64,000 nucleotides of DNA. It comes from a virus. Lineage: Duplodnaviria; Heunggongvirae; Uroviricota; Caudoviricetes. The position numbers were made by a program, and so were the translations under genes. The notes beneath the pieces are model-generated. The model made no database searches. It was not told the origin of the DNA and saw nothing but the letters and a program-made list of their open reading frames with translations. The DNA lies in IMG/VR virus record IMGVR_UViG_3300021400_002728, positions 37,154 to 101,153 of that record. The stretch is one strand, 5' to 3'. Shown here in pieces: positions 1,019 to 61,052 of this stretch; the first letter of the stretch is position 1, and every line of letters begins with the position of its first letter.

Positions 1019-1054
1019 ACTATATCATGTTTTTATGAACTCGTAAATAGTTTT
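1019..1054 (-). promoter_or_regulatory. Promoter P-a: AAAAAACTATTTACG -N17- TGaTATAGT
   Basis: Family member upstream of 397..939. Confidence 0.55.
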
Positions 1055-1110
1055 TTGAGAAATTTCACAAATTAGGGAAAACATATTTCTATGCTTTCCC
1101 TTTATTTTTC

Positions 1111-1674
1111 TTACCAATACTTTACTATCTCATCATGTAGATTCTGATTGTTAGTATTCTGTGTGTCACTAGGACCCTTATCACTACCTGGATCTCCAAT
1201 AAAATCGTCATTTGCAACGATCATATTTCCAGTTAAGTAGTAGAACTGAATGTAAGGTAAACCAATTGCTTCAGCTCTCTGACCTACAACCGTATTATCT
1301 GTTTCAGTAGTGTCCATAAGTACTTTAGACTTGATATACTCAAATGTACTCTCTGCATCTTCTACACTATTGAATGTGTAGAATGTAATTGTCGGCATAC
1401 TGTCAAACGTATACTTATTTGCAGTAATTTCACCAAATTTTTCAGTTGACGATTTTCCAGCACTAATAATCTTACCTTTTTTCTGAATAGACTCTAAGGT
1501 CATAGCATTAGGATCAATATTAGGTTCAGATTTAGCTTCAGTAGTAGGTGCTGCAGCGTTTTCACTTACAGTACCTGATTTAGACTCAACTACTGCTGTT
1601 TCTTTGGCCGTACAGCCGGCTGTCATGGCTAGTACTAATACTAAAGCAAGGACAGCAATGACTTTGTTCTTCAT
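1111..1674 (-). CDS. Secreted lipoprotein (signal peptide + lipobox MTAGC)
   Basis: MKNKVIAVLALVLVLAMTAGC... typical Gram-positive lipoprotein signal; rest hydrophilic. Confidence 0.6.
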   Translation of the reverse strand: MKNKVIAVLALVLVLAMTAGCTAKETAVVESKSGTVSENAAAPTTEAKSEPNIDPNAMTLESIQKKGKIISAGKSSTEKFGEITANKYTFDSMPTITFYTFNSVEDAESTFEYIKSKVLMDTTETDNTVVGQRAEAIGLPYIQFYYLTGNMIVANDDFIGDPGSDKGPSDTQNTNNQNLHDEIVKYW

Positions 1675-1903
1675 TAGTATAATTTCCTTTCTTCGGTAGT
1701 TTCTCAGAGGTCTCAGGATGACCTCTGGGACACTTGTTAATAAGACATATATGTTTAATAATAGTGAAATAAATATCGATTATGTCTTAATCCATGAAAG
1801 AAATGTCTTACTTTCTTATGGGTTTCATTTCGTTCAACTAAATTCCTTTTAGCAAACTTAATATGCACAAATTTATTCTCCCTCCGTAAAAAGGCATCCA
1901 ATA

Positions 1904-1925
1904 GGGTATCAAATAATTGATACCC
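1904..1925. terminator. Perfect hairpin GGGTATCAA-ATAA-TTGATACCC followed by TATTTTTT on the plus strand (plus-oriented or bidirectional terminator) just beyond the stop of 1940..2215
   Basis: Seen in sequence; on minus RNA the stem is preceded by A-tract rather than followed by U-tract. Confidence 0.4.
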
Positions 1926-1939
1926 TATTTTTTACCTAT

Positions 1940-2215
1940 TTAATTGTTTCTAATAGCTTCGAGTCTAGCTCTACACTCTGCTTTCTGCTCTTCAGTCAAT
2001 ATCTTTGGTGCACGGAATGAAAGTAACTTTTTCGGAAATTCATATGTCTTAGAAAGTTCATCTTCTTTCACAACCTTATATGTATCAGGATATTTTTCTA
2101 CTAGAGCATCAAGCTTGCGCATGTACACAGGATCTGCAGTATAAACTGAGGCGATTTTAGTATCAGCATCGGTTGTAACTATCGTTTCCTGCTCACATCT
2201 TAATAAATGTACCAT
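1940..2215 (-). CDS. Hypothetical protein (start moved to Met36 of the track ORF; AAGGAG 6 nt upstream, translationally coupled to upstream topoisomerase gene)
   Basis: Track ORF 1940..2320 overlaps the GyrA-like gene by ~95 nt; internal ATG at 2213-2215 has perfect SD AAGGAG and follows the GyrA-like stop (2226-2228). Confidence 0.5.
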   Translation of the reverse strand: MVHLLRCEQETIVTTDADTKIASVYTADPVYMRKLDALVEKYPDTYKVVKEDELSKTYEFPKKLLSFRAPKILTEEQKAECRARLEAIRNN

Positions 2216-2225
2216 ACGCAACTCC

Positions 2226-4319
2226 TTACACTGAATGTACTTCAGTAATCTCTTCGTCTTTCTTAAGGCCGATAATTCTCTTTCCACCGGCTCCTCTTCC
2301 CTGAGGCTTACCCGCTTCAACTAATTCTTTACGACCCTTGTTTGTAGTAATTTCGATTTGTTCTTTAACATCTTTAAGAAGTTTAATTGCGATAATCTCG
2401 TCTGTGTCAGACTTAAGACCACATACTACTGCACCGTTGTTCTTACTAATAAGAAGTGATGACTTAACTTCACCCATCTTACCATAACCTTCCTTAGTAA
2501 CGAAGTATACGTATGGAAGATCAAGATCTTCAGTGTAGATAGCAATAATCTGCTCATCGTCACGAATATTCTTATTGATGTCTCTAATAGGTGTACCTGA
2601 AGCAGTAGGTAAGCACTTATCAATCTGGTTAGGCCAAATCTTGTACATGTTACCTTTGTTAGATACAACCACAAATCTATTGTTGCCCTGAACTTTAATG
2701 TTCTTTGCATCTTCTTCAGTCTGACGGAACTTCATAACGTCAATCTTCTTGAGACAATTCTCAGAAGTAAGAACAATCATGAACTCTTTCTTAGGCTTAA
2801 GTGATTCAGGCTTAGCGATCTTAGCAGGTCTGTTTTCATCTGAAGAGTTATCAATAACTACATCAATAACTTCAGTCTTACGTTCCCATGCGTATTTCTC
2901 GATAAGAGCATTGAATCTGCCAAGGAAGTATTTTTCCTGAGACTTCTTATTTACCATAAGATCTTCATTAAGCTTCTTCTGCTTTTCAAGCTGCTTCTTT
3001 TCGTCATGAAGCTTAACCTGCTCAAGATTAGCTAATCTACCAAGAGGTGTATGAACAATGTAATCTGCCTGACGCTCAGTGAACTTATATTTCTTCATTT
3101 CCATGATAGCGTGTTTAGCATCTTCCATTGATTTTGACTTCTTAATAGTAGCAATAATCTCATCAATGATTTCGAGAGCATTAAGTAAACCATCAAGTAA
3201 TTCAAGTCTAGAGTTAATCTCATCGAGATTATACTTAGCTTCTTTAATTACAAGAGCAATGTTACCCTTGACGAATGTTTCCATATAGTGCTGGAATGTA
3301 ACAAGCACTGGCTTACCAGATTCATCAACGGCTTTATGTTCATCAGAGATATTGATCTGAAGACAAGTCTTCTTGAATAACTGATCAAGTGTATATTCAG
3401 CAGTGCCTTCTTCACACTCAACGTCAATCTTAAAGCCCTTCTTACCGCACAAATTACTTACATCAGTAATAGTGTTTGCATTATTGCTAATATATTTCTT
3501 AACATCATCAATAAACTGCTCAGGATAAACCTGATAAGGAAGTGAGAGAATATGAATTGTATTACCCTCAATTTCAGTCTTACCTCTAAGACGAATAGTA
3601 CCTTTACCCGTTTCGTAAAGAGCCTTCATATCAGACTTATTTACAATAACACCGCCTGTAGGAAAGTCAGGGAAGATATTAGAACAATCAGTTTTACCAG
3701 TCTTAAGGTAATTCTCTAACTGTTCCTTGAACTCAAATAAGTTACCAGAACTCCAAGAGTTTGAAACAGTATAACCCATACCAGAAGTATTAGTAATGAA
3801 AAGAAGCGGAAGTAATGCCTGCCAATTCTTAAGAATAGGCTCATCTTCCTCTTCAAGATAGTTGAGACCCATGTCAAGAAGTTTTGTATTATAGAACAAT
3901 ACGTCTTCTGCAAACTTGGAAAGTCTCATCTCAGTGTATCTTGCAGCACCAGGTGTAGGACCACCAATTGCTGAACCAAATGAACCGTGTCCGTCAATAT
4001 AAGGAATATGGTAAATATAATCTGCTGCCATACGAGCAAGAGAACCATAAGATCCACCGTGAGGTGAGAAGGACATTACTTCACCTTCTACCTTAGCAGA
4101 CTTAGTATATGGCTTATTAGATCTACGACCATTTACCCACATTGCCCAAAGAGCATGTCCAGCGATAGGCTTAAAACCTGGAGCTAAATACGCAAATGCA
4201 CGATGTAAGTTAACTTCATTTGCATAGACAACGAAGTCCTTACTCATTTCATCTTTAAGATTCATCTGTCGTAACTTAAATGCAACAGGTGTATCTTCAG
4301 TATGTTTTACTCTTGCCAT
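2226..4319 (-). CDS. Type II DNA topoisomerase, A (breakage-reunion, GyrA/ParC/T4 gp52-like) subunit
   Basis: Catalytic Tyr motif GAARYTEMRLSKFAE (cf. GyrA AAMRYTEIRL); SFSPHGGSYGSLARMAADYIYHIPYIDGHGSFGS (cf. GyrA YHPHGDSAVYDTIVRMAQ..LVDGQGNFGS); 697 aa. Confidence 0.9.
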   Translation of the reverse strand: MARVKHTEDTPVAFKLRQMNLKDEMSKDFVVYANEVNLHRAFAYLAPGFKPIAGHALWAMWVNGRRSNKPYTKSAKVEGEVMSFSPHGGSYGSLARMAADYIYHIPYIDGHGSFGSAIGGPTPGAARYTEMRLSKFAEDVLFYNTKLLDMGLNYLEEEDEPILKNWQALLPLLFITNTSGMGYTVSNSWSSGNLFEFKEQLENYLKTGKTDCSNIFPDFPTGGVIVNKSDMKALYETGKGTIRLRGKTEIEGNTIHILSLPYQVYPEQFIDDVKKYISNNANTITDVSNLCGKKGFKIDVECEEGTAEYTLDQLFKKTCLQINISDEHKAVDESGKPVLVTFQHYMETFVKGNIALVIKEAKYNLDEINSRLELLDGLLNALEIIDEIIATIKKSKSMEDAKHAIMEMKKYKFTERQADYIVHTPLGRLANLEQVKLHDEKKQLEKQKKLNEDLMVNKKSQEKYFLGRFNALIEKYAWERKTEVIDVVIDNSSDENRPAKIAKPESLKPKKEFMIVLTSENCLKKIDVMKFRQTEEDAKNIKVQGNNRFVVVSNKGNMYKIWPNQIDKCLPTASGTPIRDINKNIRDDEQIIAIYTEDLDLPYVYFVTKEGYGKMGEVKSSLLISKNNGAVVCGLKSDTDEIIAIKLLKDVKEQIEITTNKGRKELVEAGKPQGRGAGGKRIIGLKKDEEITEVHSV

Positions 4320-4340: not shown

Positions 4341-4376
4341 ATTATATCATAGTGTAATTTACAATTAAATAGTTTT
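4341..4376 (-). promoter_or_regulatory. Promoter P-b (variant -35 TTTAAT): AAAACTATTTAAT -N17- TGaTATAAT upstream of GyrA-like gene
   Basis: Family member. Confidence 0.55.
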
Positions 4377-4384
4377 AGAAAATT

Positions 4385-4414
4385 CTCAGAGAGACTTTAA
4401 CATCTCTCTGAGAT
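4385..4414 (-). terminator. Perfect 11-bp inverted repeat (TCTCAGAGAGA/TCTCTCTGAGA, 8-nt loop) flanked by T-runs on both strands; putative bidirectional intrinsic terminator after the GyrB-like gene
   Basis: Seen in sequence 6 nt after stop of 4421..6334; minus-strand RNA gives stem followed by AAUUUUCUA. Confidence 0.6.
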
Positions 4415-4420: not shown

Positions 4421-6334
4421 TTATTCATCGTAATCTGTACAATGATCTTCAAGATACAAACGTCTAGGTTCAACGTCAGCACCCTTGAATATTTCGAGAT
4501 ACTCATTGAACTCTTCCATATTGTCAGTTACAAGCTGAACAAGATCACGAGTTTCAGGATTTACTAATTGCTCATATGCTTCATCCTGTGTAAGTTCACC
4601 AAGTCCCTTAGCACGAGATAACTTATAGGGTTTCTTGTTATTCTTCTTGAAGTTCTCTAACTCAGCATCAGTCTGGAATATCTCGTATGTATCATCATTA
4701 AAGGTAACCTTAAACAATGCACCATGTACACGATAAATATGTCCGTTTTCAATGAGTTCAGGACACAACCAGTTGAATACAGTAAGAAGAAGCAATGCGA
4801 TATCATATCCATCAGCATCCTCATCAGTAGCAATAATGATATACTGATAACGTAACTTCTTAGGATCATAAATCAACTTACCAGTAGATTTATCAATATC
4901 AAGACCTAACGCCTTAACAATATTTGCGATTTCAGCATTACCAAGAACTTTATCAGGTGCAGCTTTCTGACAACAAAGAATCTTACCTCTAATAGGGAAG
5001 CAAGCCTGGAACTCAGAATCTTTAACTGCATTGATTGAAGATCCAGCAGAATCACCTTCTACTATATATAACTCACAACGAGAACGATCTTTCTTATTCT
5101 TAGGATATGCATCTGAAAGCTTAGAAGGAAGATCAACGAAAATAGATTTCTTATTAACCTTACCTGCGTCACGAATCTTTTCCTTAGCTTTCTGAGCAGC
5201 TTCTCTTGCACGTCTTGCCTGAAGAGCTCTCTCAACGATGATCTTTGCATCACCTGGATTGTTAATCAACCATGTAGCAAAATCACCACCAACTACTGAG
5301 TTAATGATCTTAGCATCAATATCATCGATACGAGATTTGTTCTGAGCATCATACTTAGCCGTTGTTGTAGTCATGTTACATACTACATAAAGACCTTCAG
5401 CAATTTCTGCATTATTGAAGTTTCTATCATTCTTCTTAAGAAGACCTACATCAGTAGCATACTTGTTAACTGCCTTAACGAAAGCAGTATGGAATGCTTT
5501 GATATGCTCACCTGCATCAGTAAGACCAAGATTTACATAAGCATCAATGCTTTCTGCATAATCTGAAGTGTATGTGATACAGATATTAAGTCTATCTTTA
5601 CCAATTGCGCGATCCATAACGAATCTGTTTGAGAAGAGTTCTTTACCTTTAACCTTACGATCAACATAAGCGTTGATACCACCAGGCTCAGAGAACTTCA
5701 TCTCTGTTCCATCCAAAGTGAACTCAATAGTAAGTTCAGGACAGAGCGCTGCAATTACTTCGAAATGTGATTTAAGTAAAGCATCATCAGGAATATTTTC
5801 CCCAAAGAACTGAGGATCTGGATGCCAGGTTACGATTGTACCTGAATCATGTTTTGCCTTACCAACTTTTCTCTTCTTAAAGATACCATCAACGAAGTCC
5901 AGTTCCTCAAACTGACCATCACGATAAGTAATAACATTAAGACTAGAACTCAACCAGTTAGTAAGTTTTGCACCAATACCATTAAGACCAAGTGCTGTAC
6001 CTTCGTAAACACCATCTGCAGAAGTCTTACCTGAAGTATTGAGCTTGTCAAAAGATCTCTGAAGAATGGTTTCTCCATCTTCATCAATACCAGCATTTAC
6101 GATGAATCCCTGACCATTATCTTCAACAATATAAGTATTTGTCTTTGTGTCGATAGTAATCTTTATCTTATTACCATGACCAATAGCATGTTCATCGACT
6201 GCATTGGCAAAGATCTCTTTAACGAGGTTAGTATTCTTCTTACTAGAACCAAGATAAGTACTTGGTACTCTTCGAGTAAATTCTCTCGGAGTTTCAGTAA
6301 CAATACTGTCTTCGGTATATAGATTTTTACCCAT
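4421..6334 (-). CDS. Type II DNA topoisomerase, B (ATPase GHKL + TOPRIM, GyrB/T4 gp39-like) subunit
   Basis: GLNGIGAKLTN (GHKL G2 box), TOPRIM ELYIVEGDSAGSS...PIRGKILC, IIATDEDADGYDIALLLLTVF (cf. GyrB [20 protein letters not shown]). Confidence 0.9.
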   Translation of the reverse strand: MGKNLYTEDSIVTETPREFTRRVPSTYLGSSKKNTNLVKEIFANAVDEHAIGHGNKIKITIDTKTNTYIVEDNGQGFIVNAGIDEDGETILQRSFDKLNTSGKTSADGVYEGTALGLNGIGAKLTNWLSSSLNVITYRDGQFEELDFVDGIFKKRKVGKAKHDSGTIVTWHPDPQFFGENIPDDALLKSHFEVIAALCPELTIEFTLDGTEMKFSEPGGINAYVDRKVKGKELFSNRFVMDRAIGKDRLNICITYTSDYAESIDAYVNLGLTDAGEHIKAFHTAFVKAVNKYATDVGLLKKNDRNFNNAEIAEGLYVVCNMTTTTAKYDAQNKSRIDDIDAKIINSVVGGDFATWLINNPGDAKIIVERALQARRAREAAQKAKEKIRDAGKVNKKSIFVDLPSKLSDAYPKNKKDRSRCELYIVEGDSAGSSINAVKDSEFQACFPIRGKILCCQKAAPDKVLGNAEIANIVKALGLDIDKSTGKLIYDPKKLRYQYIIIATDEDADGYDIALLLLTVFNWLCPELIENGHIYRVHGALFKVTFNDDTYEIFQTDAELENFKKNNKKPYKLSRAKGLGELTQDEAYEQLVNPETRDLVQLVTDNMEEFNEYLEIFKGADVEPRRLYLEDHCTDYDE

Positions 6335-6368: not shown

Positions 6369-6404
6369 ATTATATCATGTTGTATATACTTTGTAAATAG
6401 TTTT
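6369..6404 (-). promoter_or_regulatory. Promoter P-c: AAAACTATTTACA -N17- TGaTATAAT upstream of GyrB-like gene
   Basis: Family member; -35 region overlaps stop codon of gmk-like gene. Confidence 0.65.
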
Positions 6405-7431: not shown

Positions 7432-9279
7432 TTACTCCTTAAATAGCTCTTCGATCTCTTTACCACTTAAAGTTTCAACTTCAAGCAATTTTTTAGCAAG
7501 CTTTTCTACTTTATCATAATTTTCTTTAAGTAACTTTTTACATTCATTATATCTGTCTTTTGACATATTACTAAGTCGTTTAGTAAGATCTTTACCATCG
7601 ACTAAGTGAGTTTTACTTAATACTGAAATATCAAGTAAACCAAAATCATCATCAAATCCAAGATTTTCAATATATTGAGTCATACAATCAGTAGCTTGTG
7701 TAATATCATTTGAAGCACCAGTAGTAATAGATTCAAATTTAATTTCTTCAGAAGCTCTACCTGCATAACAAATCATTATTCTATGTTCAAAATCTTGTTT
7801 GGTGAGAAATACTGTTTCTTTATCAGCATTAATAACTGCACCACCAACACCAGATACTGTAGACTGAATACTCGCTCTTGCAATTGGTTCATTAAGTAAA
7901 TAGCTCATAACTGCGTGTCCAGCTTCATGGTATGCAATAATTTCTTTATCTTTAAGAAATTTCTCTTTCTTAGATCTATTACCTTTAAACTGTTTCTTAT
8001 CAATTGCCTCTTCAATACATGCACGATCAATAGCATCTTTATCAGTCATAACTGCAATAATAGACGCCTCATTGCATATAGCTTCAATATCTGCGCCAGT
8101 AAATCCAGAAATCTGTTTACTAATTTCTTCAAGATCATCTTTTAACTTATCATCGATTGTATATCTCTTTAAGTGATGTTCGAATAATTCTAATCGTTCT
8201 TGCCAATTTCTTGGTGGCATTACAATTATCTGTCTATCAAATCTACCTGCACGAACTAATGCTTTATCTAATGCATCAGGTCTATTAGTAGCCGCAATTA
8301 TAAAAATTCCTTCTCTACCAGTAAAACCATCCATTTCTTGAAGTAAAGCATCTATAGTTTGTTCATGCTCTGAGGTGCCTTTACCATTATCTCTATCAGT
8401 ACCAACTGCGTCTATTTCATCAATAAACACAATACAAGGTGCATTCTGTTTTGCGAGTTTGAATAGACCACGAACATTCTTTGCACCTACACCAACAAAT
8501 CTATCAATAAATTTAGAAGCATTCTGATATAAGAATGGCACATCAGCTTCACCAGCAATAGCTTTTGCTAGAAGTGTTTTACCACATCCAGGTGGTCCAC
8601 TAAATAAAATTCCTTTTGGTAGTTGTGCTCCTATTTTATCACCTATCTTAGGATTCTTCATAAGTTTAGTAATAAATTTTAAGTCATCTATAATTTCATC
8701 GTGTCCAATGACATCTTCAAATTTTTTAGTGCTCGTTTGAATAATATCCTCAGGTTTAACATCAGTAAAAACAGTTGACTTTAACATAACTACTAATACT
8801 ATTATCCATATAATTGGAAACGCCACAGACATAAAGGTTTCCATAATTTTAATAACAGTGGTATCTTCATTAGTTACGTTTAGAATAACACCATATTCTA
8901 GCAAATTCATTCTAAAATTATCACCACCAGGATATAATACCTGACGTTTATCAGCATTGGTATAGCCAGTATACTCATCTCGTTCTTGAATTGACATTTT
9001 TCTAGTTTCATCATTATATAAAGTAAATGTCATCCATTTATTATTCTTATTATAATCTACTGTATCTATATCACCTGCTTCTAGATAGTCTAGAAATTCA
9101 TCATATGATACTTTCTGAATATTAGTTTGTTTAGAAGCATCAATTCTAGTATATATAAAAGAAATAGTGAGCATTAACATTGCTACAGCTAATATCCAAT
9201 TTTTATACTTATGTATAAATTCTTTAGCTTTTTTCAATATAATAGTCTCCCTTCTAACAAAATAAAAGAGAGCTAGCAT
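7432..9279 (-). CDS. ftsH: FtsH-like membrane AAA+ ATPase / zinc metalloprotease
   Basis: N-terminal TM helices; Walker A GPPGCGKT; Walker B/SRH region; zinc site HEAGHAV; C-terminal ITTGASNDITQAT characteristic of FtsH protease domain; possible TTG start with AGAAGGGAG SD. Confidence 0.9.
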   Translation of the reverse strand: MLALFYFVRRETIILKKAKEFIHKYKNWILAVAMLMLTISFIYTRIDASKQTNIQKVSYDEFLDYLEAGDIDTVDYNKNNKWMTFTLYNDETRKMSIQERDEYTGYTNADKRQVLYPGGDNFRMNLLEYGVILNVTNEDTTVIKIMETFMSVAFPIIWIIVLVVMLKSTVFTDVKPEDIIQTSTKKFEDVIGHDEIIDDLKFITKLMKNPKIGDKIGAQLPKGILFSGPPGCGKTLLAKAIAGEADVPFLYQNASKFIDRFVGVGAKNVRGLFKLAKQNAPCIVFIDEIDAVGTDRDNGKGTSEHEQTIDALLQEMDGFTGREGIFIIAATNRPDALDKALVRAGRFDRQIIVMPPRNWQERLELFEHHLKRYTIDDKLKDDLEEISKQISGFTGADIEAICNEASIIAVMTDKDAIDRACIEEAIDKKQFKGNRSKKEKFLKDKEIIAYHEAGHAVMSYLLNEPIARASIQSTVSGVGGAVINADKETVFLTKQDFEHRIMICYAGRASEEIKFESITTGASNDITQATDCMTQYIENLGFDDDFGLLDISVLSKTHLVDGKDLTKRLSNMSKDRYNECKKLLKENYDKVEKLAKKLLEVETLSGKEIEELFKE

Positions 9280-9309
9280 TCAAAGAATACTAGTTCTCTT
9301 CTTATATTA

Positions 9310-9322
9310 TTAAATAGCTCTT
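9310..9322 (-). promoter_or_regulatory. Conserved element 2 (minus-strand reading AAGAGCTATTTAAT) directly after the serpin stop codon
   Basis: One of 4 intergenic copies (9310, 14944, 27340, 60657), all within 0-6 nt after a stop codon; no sigma70 -10 at proper spacing. Confidence 0.3.
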
Positions 9323-9323
9323 A

Positions 9324-10712
9324 TCACAGACTATTAATTTTGCCAATGAATAGACATTCATGTGCCTCTGTATCATAGATCATAAATACAAATGGACGAT
9401 CAAGAATAATCTCATGTACTTCTGTATCTCTAACAGGTGCAGCACTCTTCTCAAGAGTAATAGCTGTTACTGCTGCAGCTTCTGTGCCTTCAGGATTAAC
9501 ATCTACATAAGTCATCTGAATAACATCTGATACAGAAAGTGGTGTATCACTAAGATATTCCAAATAATCAGTATTGCCAGATCTAAATGCAGGTGCTAAA
9601 CCATTGTTATAAAGTGCATTGAAAAGATGATTCTCATCAGAAATCTTAAACTGAGGAATACCAATATTTACTTCATATCCATGAACTGGATTAGAAAGCA
9701 TATCATCTATATCAAGATCATTTACTGCAAAATTAGCGTTTTCCTTAGGAAGAATACCAATAAATACGAGATTTGAGTCTTCATAAGGCTTCATAAAACC
9801 TTCACACCAATTACTTTCATAATAAGTAGTATAACCATAATCGTACATCATAGTAACAGTAGAAGTAGATCCATCTGCATTAGTAAATACTGCTTCTCTA
9901 CAATTATGATCATCGAATGGATTTGCCCAAGTACCAGAGAAATAAAGTGCATTAATAAGTAAACCATCATTCAATCTCAATACTTCAGGTGATATAATAG
10001 AAGGAATACATCCATCTGTTGCTCCATCACACCAAGAATTGATAATTTCTGCACTTGTTGCATCACTAAAATCAAGTGACTGTACTCTTCCATTGTAATA
10101 TGCACTAAGTACATCTACATATGCTGGTGCAGGAGTAACTCCAGTATTAAACCATGCAGAATTTGCTATTGACATACGACTATTAAGATCATCAAACAGA
10201 TAACGTGAAATAAGTGCATTATTTCTTGATCTAATTCTAAGAAAATCATTAGGATAATTACATCCATTAAGATAATTGATTAATGCGTTATATGATTCTG
10301 TATTATCTCCAGCACCTTCAAGCAAAAGAGAAAGAGCCATATTCAAACTTGTTTCACTAAGAATAGTATTCTCATTAACATTATCAGATTCATGTTCTAC
10401 ATAATCAAGAACTGTAGTAATATTATTCAGTGAATAGTCACTGTCAAAATCATACTCAGTATTAACAATGAAGTCATCAGAATCCTCAATTAGTCTAAAT
10501 CTCTGATCTGAATCATCGTGCTTGCTAATTTTGGTATCATTTTCTGTTGAGTCAATTTTGCTTGGATTGTCATCAGTTACATCTACAATACTTACATTAT
10601 TAAGTGGATGATCTGTAGGTATGTCTGGAGTAACTCGAGTATCACCACATCCAGTGAATACTGTTATAACCATTGCTGCACAGAGTGCAATTGACAAAAT
10701 ACGCTTTTTCAT
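9324..10712 (-). CDS. Serpin (serine protease inhibitor), secreted lipoprotein
   Basis: Signal peptide + lipobox (VFTGC); serpin motifs NALYFSGTWANPF, reactive-centre-loop hinge NPEGTEAAAVTA, C-terminal DRPFVFMIYD. Confidence 0.85.
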   Translation of the reverse strand: MKKRILSIALCAAMVITVFTGCGDTRVTPDIPTDHPLNNVSIVDVTDDNPSKIDSTENDTKISKHDDSDQRFRLIEDSDDFIVNTEYDFDSDYSLNNITTVLDYVEHESDNVNENTILSETSLNMALSLLLEGAGDNTESYNALINYLNGCNYPNDFLRIRSRNNALISRYLFDDLNSRMSIANSAWFNTGVTPAPAYVDVLSAYYNGRVQSLDFSDATSAEIINSWCDGATDGCIPSIISPEVLRLNDGLLINALYFSGTWANPFDDHNCREAVFTNADGSTSTVTMMYDYGYTTYYESNWCEGFMKPYEDSNLVFIGILPKENANFAVNDLDIDDMLSNPVHGYEVNIGIPQFKISDENHLFNALYNNGLAPAFRSGNTDYLEYLSDTPLSVSDVIQMTYVDVNPEGTEAAAVTAITLEKSAAPVRDTEVHEIILDRPFVFMIYDTEAHECLFIGKINSL

Positions 10713-12561: not shown

Positions 12562-13104
12562 TTATGCGATCTTCGCAAATCCAGATCTCAGCTCACTTAC
12601 AAGATCAGTAACATACATATCAGTATACTTGCAAGTCTGTCCGTCATATTCATCAACATAGAGCTTAAACTTGTAGTTATCTCTAACGTTTCTGTTAAAC
12701 TCTTCTACGATATGACATTTCTTCTCTATATGTCTATTTGGACTACAAGAAATAATTCCAAGTCCAAAAGGATCTCTTGAAACAACTTCATATACCGGAA
12801 TGATGAATCTTACATTCTCAATTCCTTCAGACATAATTGACTGGCAGAGTTCATCACTAGTGATCCATTCACCGCTTTCAAGCTTATCCTTAACATCCTG
12901 GATAGAAATTTTCTTGAAATTATCGAGATAGATTTTATGCTGATTCCAGGTGAAGAACTTACCGACTTCATCTTCTCGAATAGTACGATCAAAGTCTCTA
13001 TAATGACCATTATTATTAGTCTGTACAGTTACCTTAGTACTGAACTCGTTGTTAGATCTCCAAACACTAATAACTTCATTGCCACAATCATATAAATAAG
13101 TCAT
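12562..13104 (-). CDS. Hypothetical protein (start moved to MTYLYD; GGAGG-8nt-ATG)
   Basis: Track ORF start overlaps its own SD; 5' UTR contains palindrome TAGTTACTGATAACTA. Confidence 0.5.
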   Translation of the reverse strand: MTYLYDCGNEVISVWRSNNEFSTKVTVQTNNNGHYRDFDRTIREDEVGKFFTWNQHKIYLDNFKKISIQDVKDKLESGEWITSDELCQSIMSEGIENVRFIIPVYEVVSRDPFGLGIISCSPNRHIEKKCHIVEEFNRNVRDNYKFKLYVDEYDGQTCKYTDMYVTDLVSELRSGFAKIA

Positions 13105-13147
13105 GTTATCTACCTCCAATAGATTAGTTATCAGTAACTATAGAGAT

Positions 13148-13183
13148 ATTATAACATGACTCTTATTGTTTGTAAATAGTATT
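13148..13183 (-). promoter_or_regulatory. Promoter P-e: AAAATACTATTTACA -N17- TGtTATAAT (sigmaA-type)
   Basis: -35 TTTACA, exactly 17-bp spacer, TG-extended -10; member of 18-copy family. Confidence 0.65.
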
Positions 13184-13459: not shown

Positions 13460-13495
13460 ATTATATCAAAGATAACTATTTTTGTAAATAGTTAA
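13460..13495 (-). promoter_or_regulatory. Promoter P-f: ACTATTTACA -N17- TATAAT
   Basis: -35 overlaps stop codon of GGDEF gene; 17-bp spacer. Confidence 0.6.
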
Positions 13496-14547
13496 ATGAT
13501 TTTTACACCATTTCGTCCATGCTGTTTTACATAGTATAGCTGTTCATCTGCTATTTTAATAATATTATTGTAATCAGTAACTTCATCATACATACATCCA
13601 CCAATAGAAACTGTTACTTGATATGTAATAAGTTCAGCTTGTATAGCATCTTTTATTCTCATCGCAGTATCATATAAAATTTCTTTATTTACATTATTAA
13701 GTACTACTACAAATTCCTCTCCACCAAATCGAATAAGATAATCCTCTGATCTAATTGTATTATTTACAGTATAAGCTAATTTTTGTAGTATAACATCACC
13801 TACATCGTGTCCATAAGTATCATTTATCTTTTTAAAAAAATCTATATCTAATAATAAAATACCGGCATTATCAATAGTAAAAATATTTGTACCATTATGA
13901 CAAATAGTCTTGAATATATTTCTATTATATGCACCAGTTAATGGATCATGTAATAATACATGATTTAATTTAATATTTGAAATAAATTTATCTTCAAATA
14001 CTTTTTCTAGATACTGAATTAAAATTTCTGATCCAATAATAAGAAATATATGTAAGGCAATAATAGTTAAGAAATCATCATAATGAATAAATATATTAGC
14101 AATTATAATATCAACTATCATAAGTGAATGAAATATTGCAGAATAACGTTTTGGAGACGCTAATCCTAAGAATATAAAAATACATTCTATAACCATTAAG
14201 CCTTCATTAGCATGCATACGATTTTCTAAATGAAAAACTGCCCAAGACGTACAAAAAATAATTATGTGCGTCATAACATATGATGCTGAAATACAAAGCT
14301 TATAGTTATTTGATTTTCGCATAATAATTATGTATATAGCTAAGAATATAAAAATAGAAGCTCTAGCAAGTAGAGTTTCTAAAGCTATTCTACCATATAA
14401 CATACAATCAGTAAACCAATAAAAGAACGATGTAATACTAGCAGTTAGAATAATATAAAATACCATCTTCTCATAGTATTCATATTTAGATTGATAAAAC
14501 TCATCTTTACGTTCTTTTATGATACTATTAGTTATGTTTGGATTCAT
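13492..14547 (-). CDS. Membrane-anchored diguanylate cyclase (multi-TM N-terminal domain + GGDEF)
   Basis: Six-seven hydrophobic helices then DPLTGAYNRNIF...GHDVGDVILQ...RFGGEEFVVVL (GGEEF active site). Confidence 0.85.
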   Translation of the reverse strand: MNPNITNSIIKERKDEFYQSKYEYYEKMVFYIILTASITSFFYWFTDCMLYGRIALETLLARASIFIFLAIYIIIMRKSNNYKLCISASYVMTHIIIFCTSWAVFHLENRMHANEGLMVIECIFIFLGLASPKRYSAIFHSLMIVDIIIANIFIHYDDFLTIIALHIFLIIGSEILIQYLEKVFEDKFISNIKLNHVLLHDPLTGAYNRNIFKTICHNGTNIFTIDNAGILLLDIDFFKKINDTYGHDVGDVILQKLAYTVNNTIRSEDYLIRFGGEEFVVVLNNVNKEILYDTAMRIKDAIQAELITYQVTVSIGGCMYDEVTDYNNIIKIADEQLYYVKQHGRNGVKII

Positions 14548-14874: not shown

Positions 14875-14943
14875 CTTTATACTCTCCTTTATATTGTATA
14901 TTTATCAAAACTTAGTATTTTTCACATTCATACTATGTTATAA

Positions 14944-14956
14944 TTAAATAGCTCTT
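14944..14956 (-). promoter_or_regulatory. Conserved element 2 (AAGAGCTATTTAAT) overlapping the stop codon of the GT-C-like gene
   Basis: See element-2 family. Confidence 0.3.
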
Positions 14957-16359
14957 TAGTTATGTTGGTAAACTGTATACATATTATCATCAAAGATTAG
15001 TGTCCAGTCATCTGTATTTCTATTCATAGTTCTATTAACATAATGATTTTTCTTAGCTACTACATACTCATAGTCATCAACTAAGGCTAAAATCTCATCA
15101 TCTTCAACTAATGAATACCCACCATCTGATTCAGCCCAATATCCTTGTGATAACGCGAAATAGTCTTCTAGAATATGTGGTACACCACTAATCTCTTCAG
15201 AAAAGGCTTCACATCGACTATCTATTTTGATCTTTGTACATCCATTATACTCTAACCAACCACCTAAATCCATGGCTACATTATATATAGGAGCATCCTT
15301 GTCTTCAATAGAATTAGCAACCTTACCATAGTCATATTTAATATCTGTATGATGTACAAATAAAAAACATACTGCTATACATATTAACGAGATACATCCA
15401 TACATATAAGTATTATTGAGTTTATGAAATTCATCTACACAGCAGATTAAAAATACTACTGGAATAAACATAATACTAATATGTCTAAAATTTATTAAGG
15501 CTAATATTGCAATAATGAACACATAGTAATTAACAAAATAATTAGACTTATGTTTATAGATATAGTAAATAGTAAAACCAATTATTAAGGTTAACTTAAC
15601 ACCAGCGTAATCTTTTATTGATATTGGCAAAAGCTCATTTATACTAATTACATTAAATGCATTTGACATAAATGTTCGTACAATATATAATGATCCATCT
15701 ATACCATAAGGTGTTAATAAACTACATGTCATAAATAATGGTGTAAAACATATTAATGTCCAATCTATAAATGGTTTTTCTTTTTTATAAAAATATGGAA
15801 CCATTATTAGACCATGATATAAAAATACTGCCTGATGCATATTAGCTGATAAAATCAATATGGGAAAAATAGGAAGTAAATATTTAATAGACTTCTTTTC
15901 CTTATATAATTCTAGGAATATTAAATGAGCTAATAAACAAATAACAGTTATAATCTGTGGCCTAATATTGATCATATAATCACTACATATCAATATAGCT
16001 GCAATAGATCCAATAAATGCCTTCTTTTTATCATGTGTCTTTATCATGATAAACGCGACAGATACAAAATATAACACTATATTCTGAACTAATACAAATA
16101 GAATATGTCCAGTTGTTCCAAATCTATCTATAATGGCTAAACAAACTGCATATAGCCACTGTTGAACCGTTATTGGAAAGTTATTTAAGTGACTAGCAGT
16201 ATGAAAATTTCCATTAAGTATATCTCTACCACTCATAATCTCAAAAAACATATCATTATCTTGAGATTTACGTAATAAAATAATGTATAAAATGAGCATA
16301 AATAGACACATCAATACAATAGGAAAGTATTTATTTATTTTGTTACATACATTTTTCAT
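14956..16359 (-). CDS. Polytopic membrane protein (about 11-12 TM helices + C-terminal soluble domain), GT-C fold glycosyltransferase-like (GtrC/YfhO/PMT-like)
   Basis: Hydrophobicity pattern only; adjacency to GT2 GtrB-like gene; no specific motif verified. Confidence 0.45.
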   Translation of the reverse strand: MKNVCNKINKYFPIVLMCLFMLILYIILLRKSQDNDMFFEIMSGRDILNGNFHTASHLNNFPITVQQWLYAVCLAIIDRFGTTGHILFVLVQNIVLYFVSVAFIMIKTHDKKKAFIGSIAAILICSDYMINIRPQIITVICLLAHLIFLELYKEKKSIKYLLPIFPILILSANMHQAVFLYHGLIMVPYFYKKEKPFIDWTLICFTPLFMTCSLLTPYGIDGSLYIVRTFMSNAFNVISINELLPISIKDYAGVKLTLIIGFTIYYIYKHKSNYFVNYYVFIIAILALINFRHISIMFIPVVFLICCVDEFHKLNNTYMYGCISLICIAVCFLFVHHTDIKYDYGKVANSIEDKDAPIYNVAMDLGGWLEYNGCTKIKIDSRCEAFSEEISGVPHILEDYFALSQGYWAESDGGYSLVEDDEILALVDDYEYVVAKKNHYVNRTMNRNTDDWTLIFDDNMYTVYQHN

Positions 16360-20931: not shown

Positions 20932-20937
20932 TTTTTT

Positions 20938-25085: not shown

Positions 25086-25121
25086 ATTATATACTGTTAC
25101 TATAAATTTGTAAATAGTTTT
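25086..25121 (-). promoter_or_regulatory. Promoter P-g: AAAACTATTTACA -N17- TATAAT
   Basis: Family member; only recognisable promoter upstream of the RNAP operon. Confidence 0.6.
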
Positions 25122-25146
25122 ATCACTATTTTATAAGAAAAAGATA

Positions 25147-25184
25147 AAATTTGCTAGGGTTATAAAAATAACTCTAGCAAATTT
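25147..25184 (-). terminator. 11-bp perfect inverted repeat AAATTTGCTAG...CTAGCAAATTT (16-nt loop) with T-runs on both strands; terminator immediately after 25187..26218
   Basis: Seen in sequence; stop codon abuts stem. Confidence 0.55.
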
Positions 25185-25186
25185 TT

Positions 25187-31449: not shown

Positions 31450-31485
31450 ATTATAACATGAATATAGAAGTTTGTAAATAGATAA
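31450..31485 (-). promoter_or_regulatory. Promoter P-h: ATTTATCTATTTACA -N17- TGtTATAAT
   Basis: Family member upstream of Pnkp. Confidence 0.6.
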
Positions 31486-31503
31486 ATATAAAAAATCTCA
31501 AAA

Positions 31504-31534
31504 GTAAAGCCGTCATATTTCAAACGGCTCTACT
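31504..31534 (-). terminator. Hairpin (AGCCGT/ACGGCT core, extendable to 10 bp) followed by U-rich tract on minus RNA; terminator after HflC-like gene
   Basis: Seen in sequence. Confidence 0.5.
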
Positions 31535-33472: not shown

Positions 33473-33508
33473 ATCATATAATATATCAAAGAAATTGTAA
33501 ATAGTTTT
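33473..33508 (-). promoter_or_regulatory. Promoter P-i: AAAAACTATTTACA -N17- TATGAT
   Basis: Family member. Confidence 0.55.
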
Positions 33509-35174: not shown

Positions 35175-35183
35175 TTGATCTCC

Positions 35184-35722: not shown

Positions 35723-35758
35723 ATTATAACATGCTACAATACACTTGTAAATAGTTTT
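35723..35758 (-). promoter_or_regulatory. Promoter P-j: AAAAACTATTTACA -N17- TATAAT
   Basis: Family member heading the helicase / NAD operon. Confidence 0.6.
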
Positions 35759-37612: not shown

Positions 37613-37623
37613 TTATTCAACCT

Positions 37624-37905: not shown

Positions 37906-37917
37906 TGTACATCTCCC

Positions 37918-38595: not shown

Positions 38596-38604
38596 AAAAA
38601 CTCC

Positions 38605-39120: not shown

Positions 39121-39138
39121 ATCATAGTCTCTCTTTCA

Positions 39139-40005: not shown

Positions 40006-40017
40006 ATTTGCTCCTTT

Positions 40018-40407: not shown

Positions 40408-40438
40408 GCTATAATAACCTCCATTATTTTATAAGATT

Positions 40439-40474
40439 ATTATAACATGTGTTTTGATCTATGTAAATAGTTTA
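40439..40474 (-). promoter_or_regulatory. Promoter P-k: AAACTATTTACA -N17- TGtTATAAT
   Basis: Family member. Confidence 0.6.
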
Positions 40475-40482
40475 TAAGAAAA

Positions 40483-40498
40483 GGAGCTCTATAGCTCC
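40483..40498 (-). terminator. GGAGCT-CTAT-AGCTCC perfect hairpin followed by UUUUCUU on minus RNA; terminator after 40508..40783, abutting promoter P-k
   Basis: Seen in sequence. Confidence 0.55.
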
Positions 40499-40507
40499 AA
40501 TTCTTTG

Positions 40508-42059: not shown

Positions 42060-42095
42060 ATTATAAACTAAATTTTTAATAATGTAAATAGTTTT
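42060..42095 (-). promoter_or_regulatory. Promoter P-l: AAAAACTATTTACA -N17- TATAAT
   Basis: Family member. Confidence 0.6.
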
Positions 42096-44518: not shown

Positions 44519-44554
44519 ATTATAACAAGAAATGTTTGCTTTGTAAATAGTTTT
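44519..44554 (-). promoter_or_regulatory. Promoter P-m: AAAAACTATTTACA -N17- TGtTATAAT
   Basis: Family member. Confidence 0.6.
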
Positions 44555-44586: not shown

Positions 44587-45180
44587 TTAAATTACTTCTA
44601 TATGTTCAGATATTTCCTTTTTCATGGCCTCAATGTTTATAACTTCTTCAGTAGGATCAAGACCGTATTTTGCACAGTATTCTCCAGCAGGATCATCTTC
44701 AGTAACGTCATATATCTTTCCTTTTATTTCGTATTCACCTTCATTAAAAAGTGCACATTTATATTTAGCATTGATTGAATTTCCATAAGTAGGGAAATAA
44801 AGTCTTATCTTCTTACCATCATAGTAAAGAATACCAAACGTATCCATGTCACCGTCTGCTCCACCATTGAAACCATAATAAGTAAGACCATTATCAAGAG
44901 TATGAAAACCGGAGAATGTATCACAAAATGCACTATCTTCTCCAAAGAAATTCTCAAAATAGATGTGGTATTTCTGATCTGCCTCAACGGTAGGATCTTC
45001 ATGTATAATGACAAAAGCATACTCATCATAAGTTACACCTTCGTCGTCATCACGATAAGCACCACCATTATGTTTCATTGCAGTCTTCTTTATTTGAGCC
45101 TTAAGCTCATCAATGGTAATTCTAGGTGCTTTTCTACCATTAATCTTATATTTATAGTCATCGTTAATTATTCTTGCCAT
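44587..45180 (-). CDS. Hypothetical protein
   Basis: ORF track. Confidence 0.5.
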   Translation of the reverse strand: MARIINDDYKYKINGRKAPRITIDELKAQIKKTAMKHNGGAYRDDDEGVTYDEYAFVIIHEDPTVEADQKYHIYFENFFGEDSAFCDTFSGFHTLDNGLTYYGFNGGADGDMDTFGILYYDGKKIRLYFPTYGNSINAKYKCALFNEGEYEIKGKIYDVTEDDPAGEYCAKYGLDPTEEVINIEAMKKEISEHIEVI

Positions 45181-45209: not shown

Positions 45210-45245
45210 ATTATAATAAGAAATAATTAAGATGTAAATAGTTTT
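45210..45245 (-). promoter_or_regulatory. Promoter P-n: AAAAACTATTTACA -N17- TATAAT
   Basis: Family member. Confidence 0.6.
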
Positions 45246-46460: not shown

Positions 46461-46658
46461 TTAACTAGGATTACAAACGCATTTTGCTCCTTCAATTTCT
46501 TTCAAACGCTCTGGAGAACCAGCAAATTTGTAATGATTACATGGCTCATTATCTACGCTAACATCAGCTCCATAGTGTTCGCCAAGACATCTTCCAAGCC
46601 ATTCTGACTGACATAACTGACAGTTGTGCATGTTCATTTCATGTGTAATGTGTGCCAT
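46461..46658 (-). CDS. Small Cys-rich protein
   Basis: ORF track; CQLCQ...C..C..C.C. Confidence 0.45.
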   Translation of the reverse strand: MAHITHEMNMHNCQLCQSEWLGRCLGEHYGADVSVDNEPCNHYKFAGSPERLKEIEGAKCVCNPS

Positions 46659-46731: not shown

Positions 46732-46767
46732 ATTATAATATAGAATAATTACTGTGTAAATAGTTTT
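46732..46767 (-). promoter_or_regulatory. Promoter P-o: AAAAAACTATTTACA -N17- TATAAT
   Basis: Family member. Confidence 0.6.
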
Positions 46768-46777: not shown

Positions 46778-46808
46778 AAGGAGACTGGTTCATAAACCAA
46801 TCTCCTTA
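46778..46808 (-). terminator. 13-bp hairpin (AAGGAGACTGGTT/AACCAATCTCCTT, 1 mismatch) then UUUUGUGUU on minus RNA; terminator after 46816..47595
   Basis: Seen in sequence. Confidence 0.55.
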
Positions 46809-47674: not shown

Positions 47675-48607
47675 TTAGGCCATTAAAATCATGGTGTAAG
47701 CCTGATCAACAAGTGCACTGCCGTGAGCAATATACATGTAGCGGTTGATGTTACTATTCTTAGTATTTCTTCCTTCAACATGATCTGCGTAATCGGCAAC
47801 TGCAGAAATGAACTTGTATCCGGTAGATCCAAATTCGAACAAATCTTCTTTCTCAAGAAATACTGAAAGAAGCTGTCCTCTTCTGCATTCCTGATTTTCT
47901 TTCTGCTTATCAGTCATATCGTCATTGATAGGAAACAGACGATTGATGAACTGCATTACCTGAACATCAGAAATTTTGATAGACTGGAGAACTTCACATT
48001 CTCTGTTAAGAGCCTTCATGTAAGAAGAACCTGCAAGAAGAATTTCTCTTGCTTCATCGATCTTCTTCATAGGATCACCAGAGTGTACACATCTCCAATG
48101 TCTAGACTGATCTCTTAAAGGGATATTAAGTGCATTTGAGCACGCAATTCTCTCAGGGACGATCATACATTTGACTGATCCTGTGCCATCGTGCGAGTTC
48201 ATAAAGATCAGATAACAATCAACTTCATCACCGAGGATAGAATACTGACCAGAAATCTTAGCTTCAAGCCACGTAGAAGATCCACCACGATAAGATCCAC
48301 CACGGATGAACTCAATCTCCTTTGAATTATAGATCGATTCAGTAAACGCGAATGCATCTACATTATTTACGATCTTATACTTATCAGAGACTATACCGAG
48401 AGGTTTTTCATCAGCTTCCCTAACAATAATGTTAGAACCGGGAACCTCGATCTGCTTACCATTAACTTCAGTATATACAGGATGTGCAGAAACAGTCCAA
48501 TTAAGACCAGCCTGTGCAAGAACATCATCATAAGACTTTGCATCGACGATTTTCTCACCGAAACCTGTATGCAACTTTTCTTTCTGTAAAAAACTAAGAT
48601 CTGCCAT
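47675..48607 (-). CDS. DUF932/DUF945-family phage/plasmid protein
   Basis: Size and motif LIFMNSHDGTGS (NSHDGS-like). Confidence 0.5.
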   Translation of the reverse strand: MADLSFLQKEKLHTGFGEKIVDAKSYDDVLAQAGLNWTVSAHPVYTEVNGKQIEVPGSNIIVREADEKPLGIVSDKYKIVNNVDAFAFTESIYNSKEIEFIRGGSYRGGSSTWLEAKISGQYSILGDEVDCYLIFMNSHDGTGSVKCMIVPERIACSNALNIPLRDQSRHWRCVHSGDPMKKIDEAREILLAGSSYMKALNRECEVLQSIKISDVQVMQFINRLFPINDDMTDKQKENQECRRGQLLSVFLEKEDLFEFGSTGYKFISAVADYADHVEGRNTKNSNINRYMYIAHGSALVDQAYTMILMA

Positions 48608-48661: not shown

Positions 48662-48697
48662 ATTATAACACGATCTTAGATAAATGTAAACAGTTTT
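48662..48697 (-). promoter_or_regulatory. Promoter P-p (variant): AAAACTGTTTACA -N17- TGtTATAAT
   Basis: Family member with C to G change in upstream element. Confidence 0.55.
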
Positions 48698-54659: not shown

Positions 54660-54695
54660 ATTATATCATAGATCAAACAAATAGTAAATAGTTTA
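54660..54695 (-). promoter_or_regulatory. Promoter P-q (variant): AAACTATTTACT -N17- TGaTATAAT
   Basis: Family member. Confidence 0.55.
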
Positions 54696-58930: not shown

Positions 58931-58966
58931 ATTATATCAAGGAGGTATTAAATTGTAAATAGTTTT
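58931..58966 (-). promoter_or_regulatory. Promoter P-r: AAAACTATTTACA -N17- TGaTATAAT; spacer contains AATACCTCCTT complementary to downstream SD AAGGAGGTATT
   Basis: Family member. Confidence 0.6.
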
Positions 58967-60616: not shown

Positions 60617-60656
60617 TTTCGTACCTCTTTTCTTAAAGATTTGAACATCTGTATAA

Positions 60657-60669
60657 TTAAATAGCTCTT
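60657..60669 (-). promoter_or_regulatory. Conserved element 2 (AAGAGCTATTTAAT) 2 nt after stop of 60672..60944, about 45 nt upstream of ATG at 60616
   Basis: See element-2 family. Confidence 0.3.
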
Positions 60670-60671
60670 CA

Positions 60672-60944
60672 TTAACGATCTTCAGGATGTGAATCAACCA
60701 TAATGGTTCCGTCTGAATTATATCTTACAGTAATACCACAACCTTCATATCCATCATATAGCAAATAATGAACACCAGTCTCAGGATCTACATAATCTGA
60801 AATTTCATCATTTGCATAATATGTGAGCTTACTATAATAATCTGCGTCATTCCAAGTCTTTTCTTCAGATACACCACATCCAGTTAAAACACCTGCTACA
60901 ACTGCGATACTAGCCGCTGCAATAAGAACTTTAGATTTATTCAT
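60672..60944 (-). CDS. Small secreted lipoprotein
   Basis: MNKSKVLIAAASIAVVAGVLTGC lipobox. Confidence 0.55.
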   Translation of the reverse strand: MNKSKVLIAAASIAVVAGVLTGCGVSEEKTWNDADYYSKLTYYANDEISDYVDPETGVHYLLYDGYEGCGITVRYNSDGTIMVDSHPEDR

Positions 60945-60968
60945 ACTTTCTCCTTATCATAGCCTAAA

Positions 60969-60998
60969 CTGATATAGAGATTTATTTCTCTATATCAG
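60969..60998 (-). promoter_or_regulatory. Perfect 12-bp inverted repeat CTGATATAGAGA-N6-TCTCTATATCAG in the 5' UTR of the lipoprotein gene (between P-s -10 and SD)
   Basis: Seen in sequence. Confidence 0.45.
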
Positions 60999-61016
60999 CT
61001 TATGCATTATTATGTT

Positions 61017-61052
61017 ATTTTAACACAATATATTTATTTTGTAAATAGTTTT
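61017..61052 (-). promoter_or_regulatory. Promoter P-s: AAAAAACTATTTACA -N17- TGtTAAAAT
   Basis: Family member. Confidence 0.55.

Follow-up and report, generated by a model that had tools for sequence, protein, structure and literature searches.

The early promoters of phage T4 are excellent matches to all four host promoter elements and also carry "additional regions of consensus"; many host-type copies, each with an A/T-rich UP (upstream) region, a -35, a TGn, a consensus -10 and extra conserved positions, precede the pre-replicative genes of T4 (PMC2988021). T4 middle promoters, which depend on MotA and AsiA, have an activator box near -30, about 12 bp from the -10 (PMC2988021). Phages RB49 and phi1 carry PeSLs (promoter early stem-loops), which are repeated strong sigma-70-like promoters in AT-rich intergenic DNA, situated between a stop codon and a Shine-Dalgarno sequence and often accompanied by stem-loop terminators (PMC2839356). 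Here we describe 18 nearly identical promoters, which we denote class I, in a 64-kb stretch of phage DNA (IMG/VR record IMGVR_UViG_3300021400_002728, positions 37,154 to 101,153; "the window" below is this whole stretch). From their sequence and context, we propose with a probability of roughly 0.8 that these 18 sites serve as early (pre-replicative) promoters and that a clostridial host reads them with its sigma-A holoenzyme in unmodified form.

The window contains exactly 18 sites of the form AAAACTATTTACA-N17-TATAAT, and 18 of 18 are on the minus strand. A preliminary description of this DNA had listed these sites with their coordinates and strand and had proposed a motif search; direct reading of each site confirmed the list, and a weight matrix run over the window found it to be both correct and complete. 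The matrix was built from the 18 sites, spans -47 to +4 and was scored leave-one-out. The sites reached 22-42 bits (27.5 bits for the site at 1019), and no further family member scoring above 8 bits was found on either strand of the window. When up to one mismatch was allowed, CTATTTACA-N17-TATAAT gave 16 matches against 0.07 expected from dinucleotide-preserving shuffles, which together with the separation of the matrix scores excludes chance or low complexity as the origin of the 18 sites. The 13-mer AAAACTATTTACA by itself, with up to two mismatches, matched 25 times in the window against 7.65 expected. Copies of the 13-mer at 15766, 21606 and 47579, with one or two mismatches, were rejected as family members: they have no -10 at 17 bp and score below 8 bits. 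A scan with a generic sigma-70 pattern showed no overall excess (78-114 matches per 20 kb, against 95-117 in shuffles), so we treat only the top-scoring class as real and disregard weak matches.

Each copy has the architecture of a housekeeping sigma-70/sigma-A promoter, namely hexamers near TTGACA and TATAAT with a spacer within 17 +/- 1 bp. The -35 hexamer is TTTACA at 15 of the 18 sites, a 5/6 match to TTGACA, and the remaining three (TTTACG at 1019, TTTAAT at 4341 and TTTACT at 54660) match at 4/6. TATAAT forms the -10 at 15 sites as well; TATAGT, TATGAT and TAAAAT, each with one mismatch, occur once each. The 17-bp spacer reported in the preliminary description is exact at 18 of 18 sites and in their orthologs, while the TGn count given there as 14 of 18 is actually 13 of 18, these 13 sites carrying the TG at -15/-14 of an extended -10. 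Information content is about 19 bits in -42..-30, more than in a typical -35, about 5 bits in -17..-13 (typically C-A-T-G-n, with C/T at -17 and CATGn common) and about 9 bits in the -10 hexamer. Bases 7-9 after the -10 are usually A-T-A, and the A at the 7th base, present at 16 of the 18 sites, would be the expected transcription start. Among the 18 copies the spacer shows no conservation, and likeness ends at about -44 and +3, beyond which the flanks are unrelated.

UP elements consist of a proximal subsite at -45..-37 and a distal subsite at -58..-45 (PMC2613000). The A-tract at -42..-39 (0.8-1.3 bits per position) provides an A/T-rich proximal subsite; no conserved information was found among the 18 sites upstream of about -44, and a distal subsite is accordingly not seen. 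As in the T4 early class, all four host elements plus extra consensus are found here in many copies before pre-replicative genes, and the hexamer stands at the canonical -35, not at the position of the T4 middle-promoter box. The -35 of T4 early promoters is also of the GTTTAC type. The set differs from that of T4 in that the likely host is Gram-positive and clostridial, and in that a multisubunit RNA polymerase, lacking in T4, is encoded here.

All substantial open reading frames (ORFs) of the window are on the minus strand, and the window is 93% coding. The 18 sites are without exception intergenic or overlap a stop codon by 1-4 nt, in a window of which about 6% falls in gaps of 25 nt or more. 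The -10 usually ends 21-34 nt ahead of a start codon with a Shine-Dalgarno sequence. The identity as sigma-70/sigmaA promoters put forward in the preliminary description fits the architecture, exact spacing, TGn, intergenic position, co-orientation and start-codon distance of the sites. No RNA genes were found in the window with Rfam and ARAGORN, so no promoter there drives a known RNA. The genes served include those for gyrase A and B, Dda-like and DnaB-like helicases, primase, a RecA-like protein, RNase H, a polynucleotide kinase-phosphatase/RNA ligase and four NAD-salvage enzymes, as well as FtsH, a serpin, a GGDEF protein, two SPFH proteins and the RNA polymerase. The multisubunit RNA polymerase of the phage is split and is encoded on the minus strand at 19535-24403, inside an 11.6-kb unit behind the class I promoter at 25086. 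Beta lies at 22151-24403 (750 aa), the N-terminal part of beta' at 20938-22173 (411 aa) and the C-terminal part of beta' at 19535-20506 (323 aa), with a 141-aa ORF listed between the two beta' parts. This polymerase is highly divergent: its catalytic cores alone match bacterial, AR9 (7S00) and phiKZ (7OGP) enzymes, the AR9 and phiKZ matches being weak.

When 8 kb of the window was compared by Megablast with 50,697 phage records, no match was obtained, and tblastn with the beta subunit returned only remote matches in Vibrio and Salmonella jumbo phages. Because there is no close match among phage records, the phage is not a described isolate, and the window is part of an uncultured huge phage. 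The exact beta protein was found in assemblies from two sequencing runs, SRR873598 and SRR873599, on contigs that include some of 0.2-1 Mb, and also on SHIW14-1 and AUXO01... records, which we take to belong to a sheep-rumen metagenome series. By amino-acid identity of beta, the closest IMG/VR relative is a 332-kb contig (91%), followed by a 29-kb fragment (88%) and by contigs of 290 kb (71%), 467 kb (67%) and 89 kb (67%). A word search of a paper on metagenomic RNA-polymerase-encoding Caudovirales (mReC; PMC7481178) turned up nothing on promoters or a clostridial host. For a 930-aa protein at the right window end, no record was found.

The 332-kb relative has the class I motif in no fewer than five separate regions of its genome. 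We compared 10 orthologous promoter pairs between this relative and the window as a phylogenetic footprint. Identity across the 10 pairs is 0.46 in the upstream flank, rises to 0.89 at -42..-36 and 0.97 in the -35 hexamer, falls to 0.54 in the spacer (-29..-18), rises again to 0.86 at -17..-13 and 1.00 in the -10 hexamer, and is 0.56 downstream; the spacer length is always 17 bp. On this sequence comparison, the footprint is one of purifying selection on every promoter element, the upstream extension included. The same architecture is found in more distant relatives (L-numbers label the individual sequence stretches that were compared). In L121 and L122, an A-rich run is followed by TATTTACA or AGTTTACA near -35. 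In L120, from the 290-kb relative (9916, 21771 and, on the minus strand, 485), GTATACA replaces TATTTACA at -35 and TGnTATAAT is unchanged, which is a lineage-specific -35 variant that possibly reflects a different host. Many IMG/VR phage contigs (7-55 kb) with little or no protein similarity to the window also carry several co-oriented copies of the same architecture, with TTGACA replacing TTTACA in contig L008. In contigs L016 (e.g. 11192, 11546) and L084 (e.g. 5297, 11830), the -35 hexamer lies in the loop of a terminator hairpin, as in AAAGCCG-TTTACAAAAA-CGGCTTTTT; to judge from the sequence, promoter and terminator overlap here, an arrangement also known from one PeSL subclass.

To ask who reads the motif, we turned to bacterial chromosomes, where the exact 13-mer followed by N17 and TATAAT was sought in one genome per bacterial or archaeal species. 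The pattern was found in at least 120 bacterial genome stretches. Among the matches listed, Clostridia, mostly of the gut and rumen, account for about four fifths of the 80 stretches with titles, the taxa including Eubacteriales, Oscillospiraceae, Ruminococcus, Christensenellaceae, Lachnospiraceae, Clostridioides difficile, Clostridium tertium and C. homopropionicum, and AT-rich groups outside Firmicutes are almost absent. The bacterial sites have the behavior of promoters: of 121 among the same listed matches, 89 are intergenic, 78 have an ORF starting on the same strand within 250 nt, and 58 carry TG at -15/-14, a feature that the search pattern did not specify.

The gene directly downstream is rpsO, encoding ribosomal protein S15, in at least 15 bacterial loci (L132, L136, L142, L170, L182, L186, L188-L190, L200, L204, L206, L215, L226 and L240), at a distance of 102-139 nt. 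One of these, L132, is a Clostridia metagenome-assembled genome (MAG), SRR873606_bin.120; its accession is near SRR873598/SRR873599, the source runs of the window, and the project may be shared. In the rpsO loci, the exact 13-mer and the 17-bp spacing are kept and the spacer sequences differ, with S15 identity to the L142/L206 probe at 60-100%; this suggests an unusually strong constraint on -42..-30 in the hosts themselves. Other genes directly downstream are rpsD (S4), hpf (ribosome hibernation factor), pckA (phosphoenolpyruvate carboxykinase) and genes for rubrerythrin and a copper chaperone, as well as tRNA genes (tRNA-Sec in C. homopropionicum and tRNA-Arg in a Bacillota MAG). In strong promoters taken from these loci without selection for the motif, TTGACA (14 sites) or TTTACA (8) is preceded by an A-tract at -44..-40 and by TA at -37/-36. 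Together, the rpsO-type occurrences and the pattern of the unselected promoters indicate that the phage 13-mer is a frozen version of a clostridial housekeeping promoter.

The clostridial sigma-A promoters of rpsO, rpsD, hpf and tRNA genes thus have the identical form AAAACTATTTACA-N17-(TGn)TATAAT, but the bacteria use it sporadically and use TTGACA too, whereas the phage repeats one frozen version 18 times in 64 kb. Furthermore, host rpsO leaders are about 100-140 nt long, whereas the phage copies stand at Shine-Dalgarno distance. Since an identical motif precedes chromosomal genes of Clostridia, host holoenzyme evidently uses it without a phage protein. The proposal of the preliminary description that host RNA polymerase reads this class, although the phage encodes a polymerase, is supported by the motif before clostridial rpsO, rpsD, hpf, pckA and tRNA genes, and also because the phage beta and beta' genes sit behind the promoter at 25086.

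On the reading that we favor, the A-tract at -42..-39, at the proximal UP subsite, would be contacted by the alpha C-terminal domain (PMC2613000), the extended -35, CTA+TTTACA, by sigma region 4, the (C/T)(A/T)TGn element at -16/-15 by sigma region 3, and the consensus TATAAT by sigma region 2 (PMC2988021). Transcription would then start at the A 7 nt past the -10, in an AT-rich discriminator. With near-optimal elements, the 18 copies, about one per 3.5 kb, should out-compete host promoters right after DNA entry. The class I promoters would drive expression of the replication, nucleotide/NAD (nicotinamide adenine dinucleotide)-metabolism and host-takeover genes and of the split phage RNA polymerase; the phage polymerase, a small phage sigma factor of the kind seen in the 332-kb relative, or both would then serve later promoter classes. 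This order of host polymerase followed by phage polymerase would be, by analogy, the temporal logic of T7.

Several observations weigh against reading the 18 sites as early promoters of host sigma-A holoenzyme. T, rather than the consensus G, occupies the third -35 position in 18 of 18 copies, and the C at -38 is nearly invariant among them. Sampled host promoters show both features weakly, so the phage motif is more stereotyped than host preference predicts. Selection for one optimum, avoidance of over-tight binding and homogenization by recombination are possible sources of this stereotypy, and concerted evolution through recombination among the copies could have contributed to the uniformity. 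In addition, the link to a clostridial host rests on motif sharing and environment, and the 332-kb relative encodes a small sigma-like protein. Finally, in phiKZ and AR9, which are jumbo phages with multisubunit RNA polymerases, early genes are transcribed by an injected virion polymerase and host polymerase is not needed (PMC5312081, PMC7598289).

The alternative that survives best takes up the question of uniformity: the copies could primarily be PeSL-like mobile promoter-terminator cassettes, made uniform by spread and gene conversion and not by selection acting on each promoter. This is compatible with promoter function, and we consider it possible, if doubtful. The window and the 332-kb relative are collinear, and two window-only indels run exactly from promoter to promoter. 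Cassette 1 consists of the promoter at 33473 and two SPFH genes and ends at the promoter at 31450; cassette 2 consists of the promoter at 45210 and the ORF at 44587-45180 and ends at the promoter at 44519. At both indels, the relative has a single chimeric promoter, the upstream flank of which resembles the upstream copy while its spacer and downstream flank resemble the downstream copy. This flank pattern places the junction inside the 13-mer; the junctions were read by eye, as small indels defeat ungapped identity figures. PeSLs behave likewise, with cassette indels between relatives bounded by the repeats (PMC2839356); the comparison here covers one relative, and a third indel departs from the pattern (below).

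The pairing with terminators is a further point for a mobile cassette, and the preliminary description had stated that many of the sites follow a terminator hairpin. This holds for 6 to 7 of the 18, so that "many" should read "about a third". Six sites have a convincing hairpin, G+C-rich and with a T-run, no more than about 40 nt upstream, and a weak hairpin is found at 58931. The six terminator-like hairpins, all on the minus strand, are at 1074..1101 (z = -5.2) and 4384..4413, just upstream of the promoters at 1019 and 4341, and at 25146..25185, 31503..31534 (z = -8.2), 40483..40498 and 46778..46807, upstream of the promoters at 25086, 31450, 40439 and 46732, respectively. In PeSLs, by contrast, a stem-loop belongs to every unit; here it accompanies about a third of the copies only and is placed upstream of the promoter, not within it. 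The likeness of the copies, which stops at about -44 and +3, leaves no extended mobile unit, and one of the two boundaries of a third indel, the Dda-helicase block, has no promoter copy. Moreover, orthologous copies keep lineage-specific spacers, which points to site-by-site purifying selection rather than frequent conversion. Under the favored reading as sigma-A promoters, the near-identical 36-45-bp copies, often beside terminators, would still serve as boundaries and probably as crossover points for the gain and loss of cassettes.

The Dda-helicase block spans about 36350-40783 and comprises seven genes, including that for the Dda-like helicase; it is missing in the 332-kb relative, where the last 34 helicase codons are kept.

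A second alternative, which we regard as improbable, is that a phage-encoded small sigma factor, or an appropriation pair like T4 AsiA/MotA, steers the host core or the phage polymerase to AAAACTATTTACA. The 13-mer does hold about 19 bits, above a typical -35, and a 166-aa protein of the 332-kb relative (L058 9355-9855, at about 24.3 kb) resembles sigma region 4. This protein matches phrog_351 (E = 3.5e-5) and RpoS/SigA chains (E = 3e-4), and it keeps R-E-x-x-R in the -35 recognition helix. A second motif of the window, GAGCTATTTAAT, has a CTATTTA core in common with class I. However, the identical class I motif precedes rpsO and other genes in many Clostridia that have no such phage factor, and a class I promoter (L058 9296) directly precedes the sigma-like gene, so class I must fire before the sigma-like protein exists. 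TGn and TATAAT require regions 3 and 2.4 of a primary sigma, which a 166-aa two-domain protein would be unlikely to provide. The -35 stands at 17 bp from the -10, unlike the MotA box at about 12 bp (PMC2988021), and Pfam found no sigma-family domain among the approximately 70 ORFs of the window. The preliminary description had offered either UP-like enhancement or a phage factor to account for AAAACTA. With the A-tract inside -45..-37, UP-like enhancement or an extended -35 is favored, and since the motif is shared with many Clostridia chromosomes, a phage-specific factor is not needed.

The weakest alternative, that the sites are promoters of an injected multisubunit phage RNA polymerase, as for phiKZ and AR9 early genes, is very hard to sustain: this is, like those, a huge phage with divergent split beta/beta' subunits that weakly match AR9 (7S00) and phiKZ (7OGP), and the phages known to be of this type do not rely on host polymerase (PMC7598289), but their known promoters are single AT-rich start-site elements (AR9 early AAATATATATTAT-(6N)-G, AR9 late AACA-(6N)-TA/G and phiKZ late TATG; PMC5312081), whereas class I is bipartite and host-type, the class I motif serves bacterial chromosomal genes, and the one beta/beta' set visible within the window is itself behind a class I promoter.

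The short second motif looks nearer to the single-element kind of promoter. The window contains four exact copies of its full form, (G/T)AA-GAGCTATTTAAT-WW-TAWA, where 0.02 would be expected; each is on the minus strand (9309-9320, 14943-14954, 27339-27350 and 60656-60667), and the motif recurs beyond the window at L245 15687, L119 7095, L052 7208 and L014 3193 and 10270. The copies are on the coding strand, at or just past a stop codon and 30-90 nt ahead of a start codon, in gaps without a class I promoter, and the motif is conserved at orthologous places in relatives. By inspection, there is no -10 box 17 bp downstream, and we therefore rejected it as a class I variant; the phage polymerase or a phage sigma factor could be what reads this candidate promoter. 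Beyond the left window end, a further 10 kb adds two class I sites and one GAGCTATTTAAT site.

The class I promoters serve the following genes, all sites being on the minus strand. Site 1019..1054 (AAAACTATTTACG-N17-TATAGT, with TGn) is 79 nt upstream of the ORF at 397-939. The gyrA-like gene at 2226-4319 is preceded by site 4341..4376 (AAAACTATTTAAT-N17-TATAAT, with TGn), and the gyrB-like gene at 4421-6334 by site 6369..6404 (TGn). Two further TGn sites, 13148..13183 and 13460..13495, are upstream of the ORF at 12562-13119 and of a 72-aa ORF, with orthologs at L118 21197 and L118 20907, respectively. Site 25086..25121, without TG, heads the unit that includes the phage RNA polymerase and has orthologs at L118 9290 and L119 9257. 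The gene for the polynucleotide kinase-phosphatase/RNA ligase (29216-31417) follows site 31450..31485 (TGn), and site 33473..33508, with a TATGAT -10 and without TG, heads the two-SPFH-gene cassette missing in the relative. Site 35723..35758 (TGn) is upstream of an isochorismatase-family (nicotinamidase-like) gene at 35184-35690, and site 40439..40474 also has TGn. An L,D-transpeptidase-domain gene (40795-42030) follows site 42060..42095, without TG, and a small ORF together with the NAPRTase gene (43118-44335) follows site 44519..44554 (TGn). Two more sites lack TG: 45210..45245, which heads the single-gene cassette (44587-45180) missing in the relative, and 46732..46767, upstream of a 65-aa ORF at 46461-46658. 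Toward the right end are site 48662..48697 (AAAACTGTTTACA, with TGn), upstream of a DUF932 gene at 47675-48607, and sites 54660..54695 (TAAACTATTTACT, with TGn), 58931..58966 (TGn) and 61017..61052 (TAAAAT -10, with TGn).

Four NAD-salvage genes, located at 33524-35690 and 43118-44335, encode an NAD synthase, a cytidylyltransferase-like/HD protein, the isochorismatase-family nicotinamidase-like protein and NAPRTase. This set may be an NAD-replenishing counter-defense. Other cargo of the window is unusual for a phage, comprising an FtsH protease, a serpin, a GGDEF diguanylate cyclase, a BspA-type leucine-rich-repeat protein, two SPFH/Band-7 proteins and an L,D-transpeptidase-domain protein (taken together, at 7432-10712, 13492-14547, 25187-26218, 31559-33450 and 40795-42030). 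A 265-nt gap at 1675-1939 has neither promoter motif; on its plus strand are stable hairpins with T-runs at 1710-1731 and 1900-1929, and it has no Rfam match. A perfect TTGACA-17-TATAAT lies at 15663-15691 on the plus (non-coding) strand, inside the ORF at 14956-16359, and could be an antisense promoter or a chance occurrence.

Altogether, the class I set is a new example, in an uncultured huge phage, of the well-known strategy of strong host-type early promoters. What is unusual is its coexistence with a phage multisubunit polymerase that is under host-type control, its identity with clostridial rpsO-type promoters and the position of copies at cassette boundaries. The set provides a clean operon map for 64 kb of an uncultured huge phage, and its identity with rpsO, rpsD and tRNA promoters of gut and rumen Clostridia is a sequence-based clue to the host that is independent of CRISPR spacers. 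The 45-bp element might also be of use as a strong, portable promoter in Clostridia that are hard to manipulate genetically. The cassette indels with promoters at their ends would carry the PeSL idea, that regulatory repeats act as shuffling points, beyond T4-type phages.

More broadly, the finding suggests that, in contrast to phiKZ and AR9, at least some huge phages with a polymerase of their own still rely on that of the host when infection begins. Surveys of cultured jumbo phages report no case of a sigma-like protein alongside a multisubunit polymerase (PMC7824862). We tentatively suggest, as a speculation more than an expectation, that this rumen/gut lineage of huge phages, with genomes of about 290-470 kb, might be the first group of multisubunit-RNA-polymerase phages that starts infection without an injected polymerase, moving from rpsO-type sigma-A mimicry to its own beta/beta' and a minimal sigma, with AAGAGCTATTTAATWWTATAA as the promoter of the phage enzyme. 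If this is true, a T7-like relay built with a multisubunit enzyme and a sigma factor would be new.

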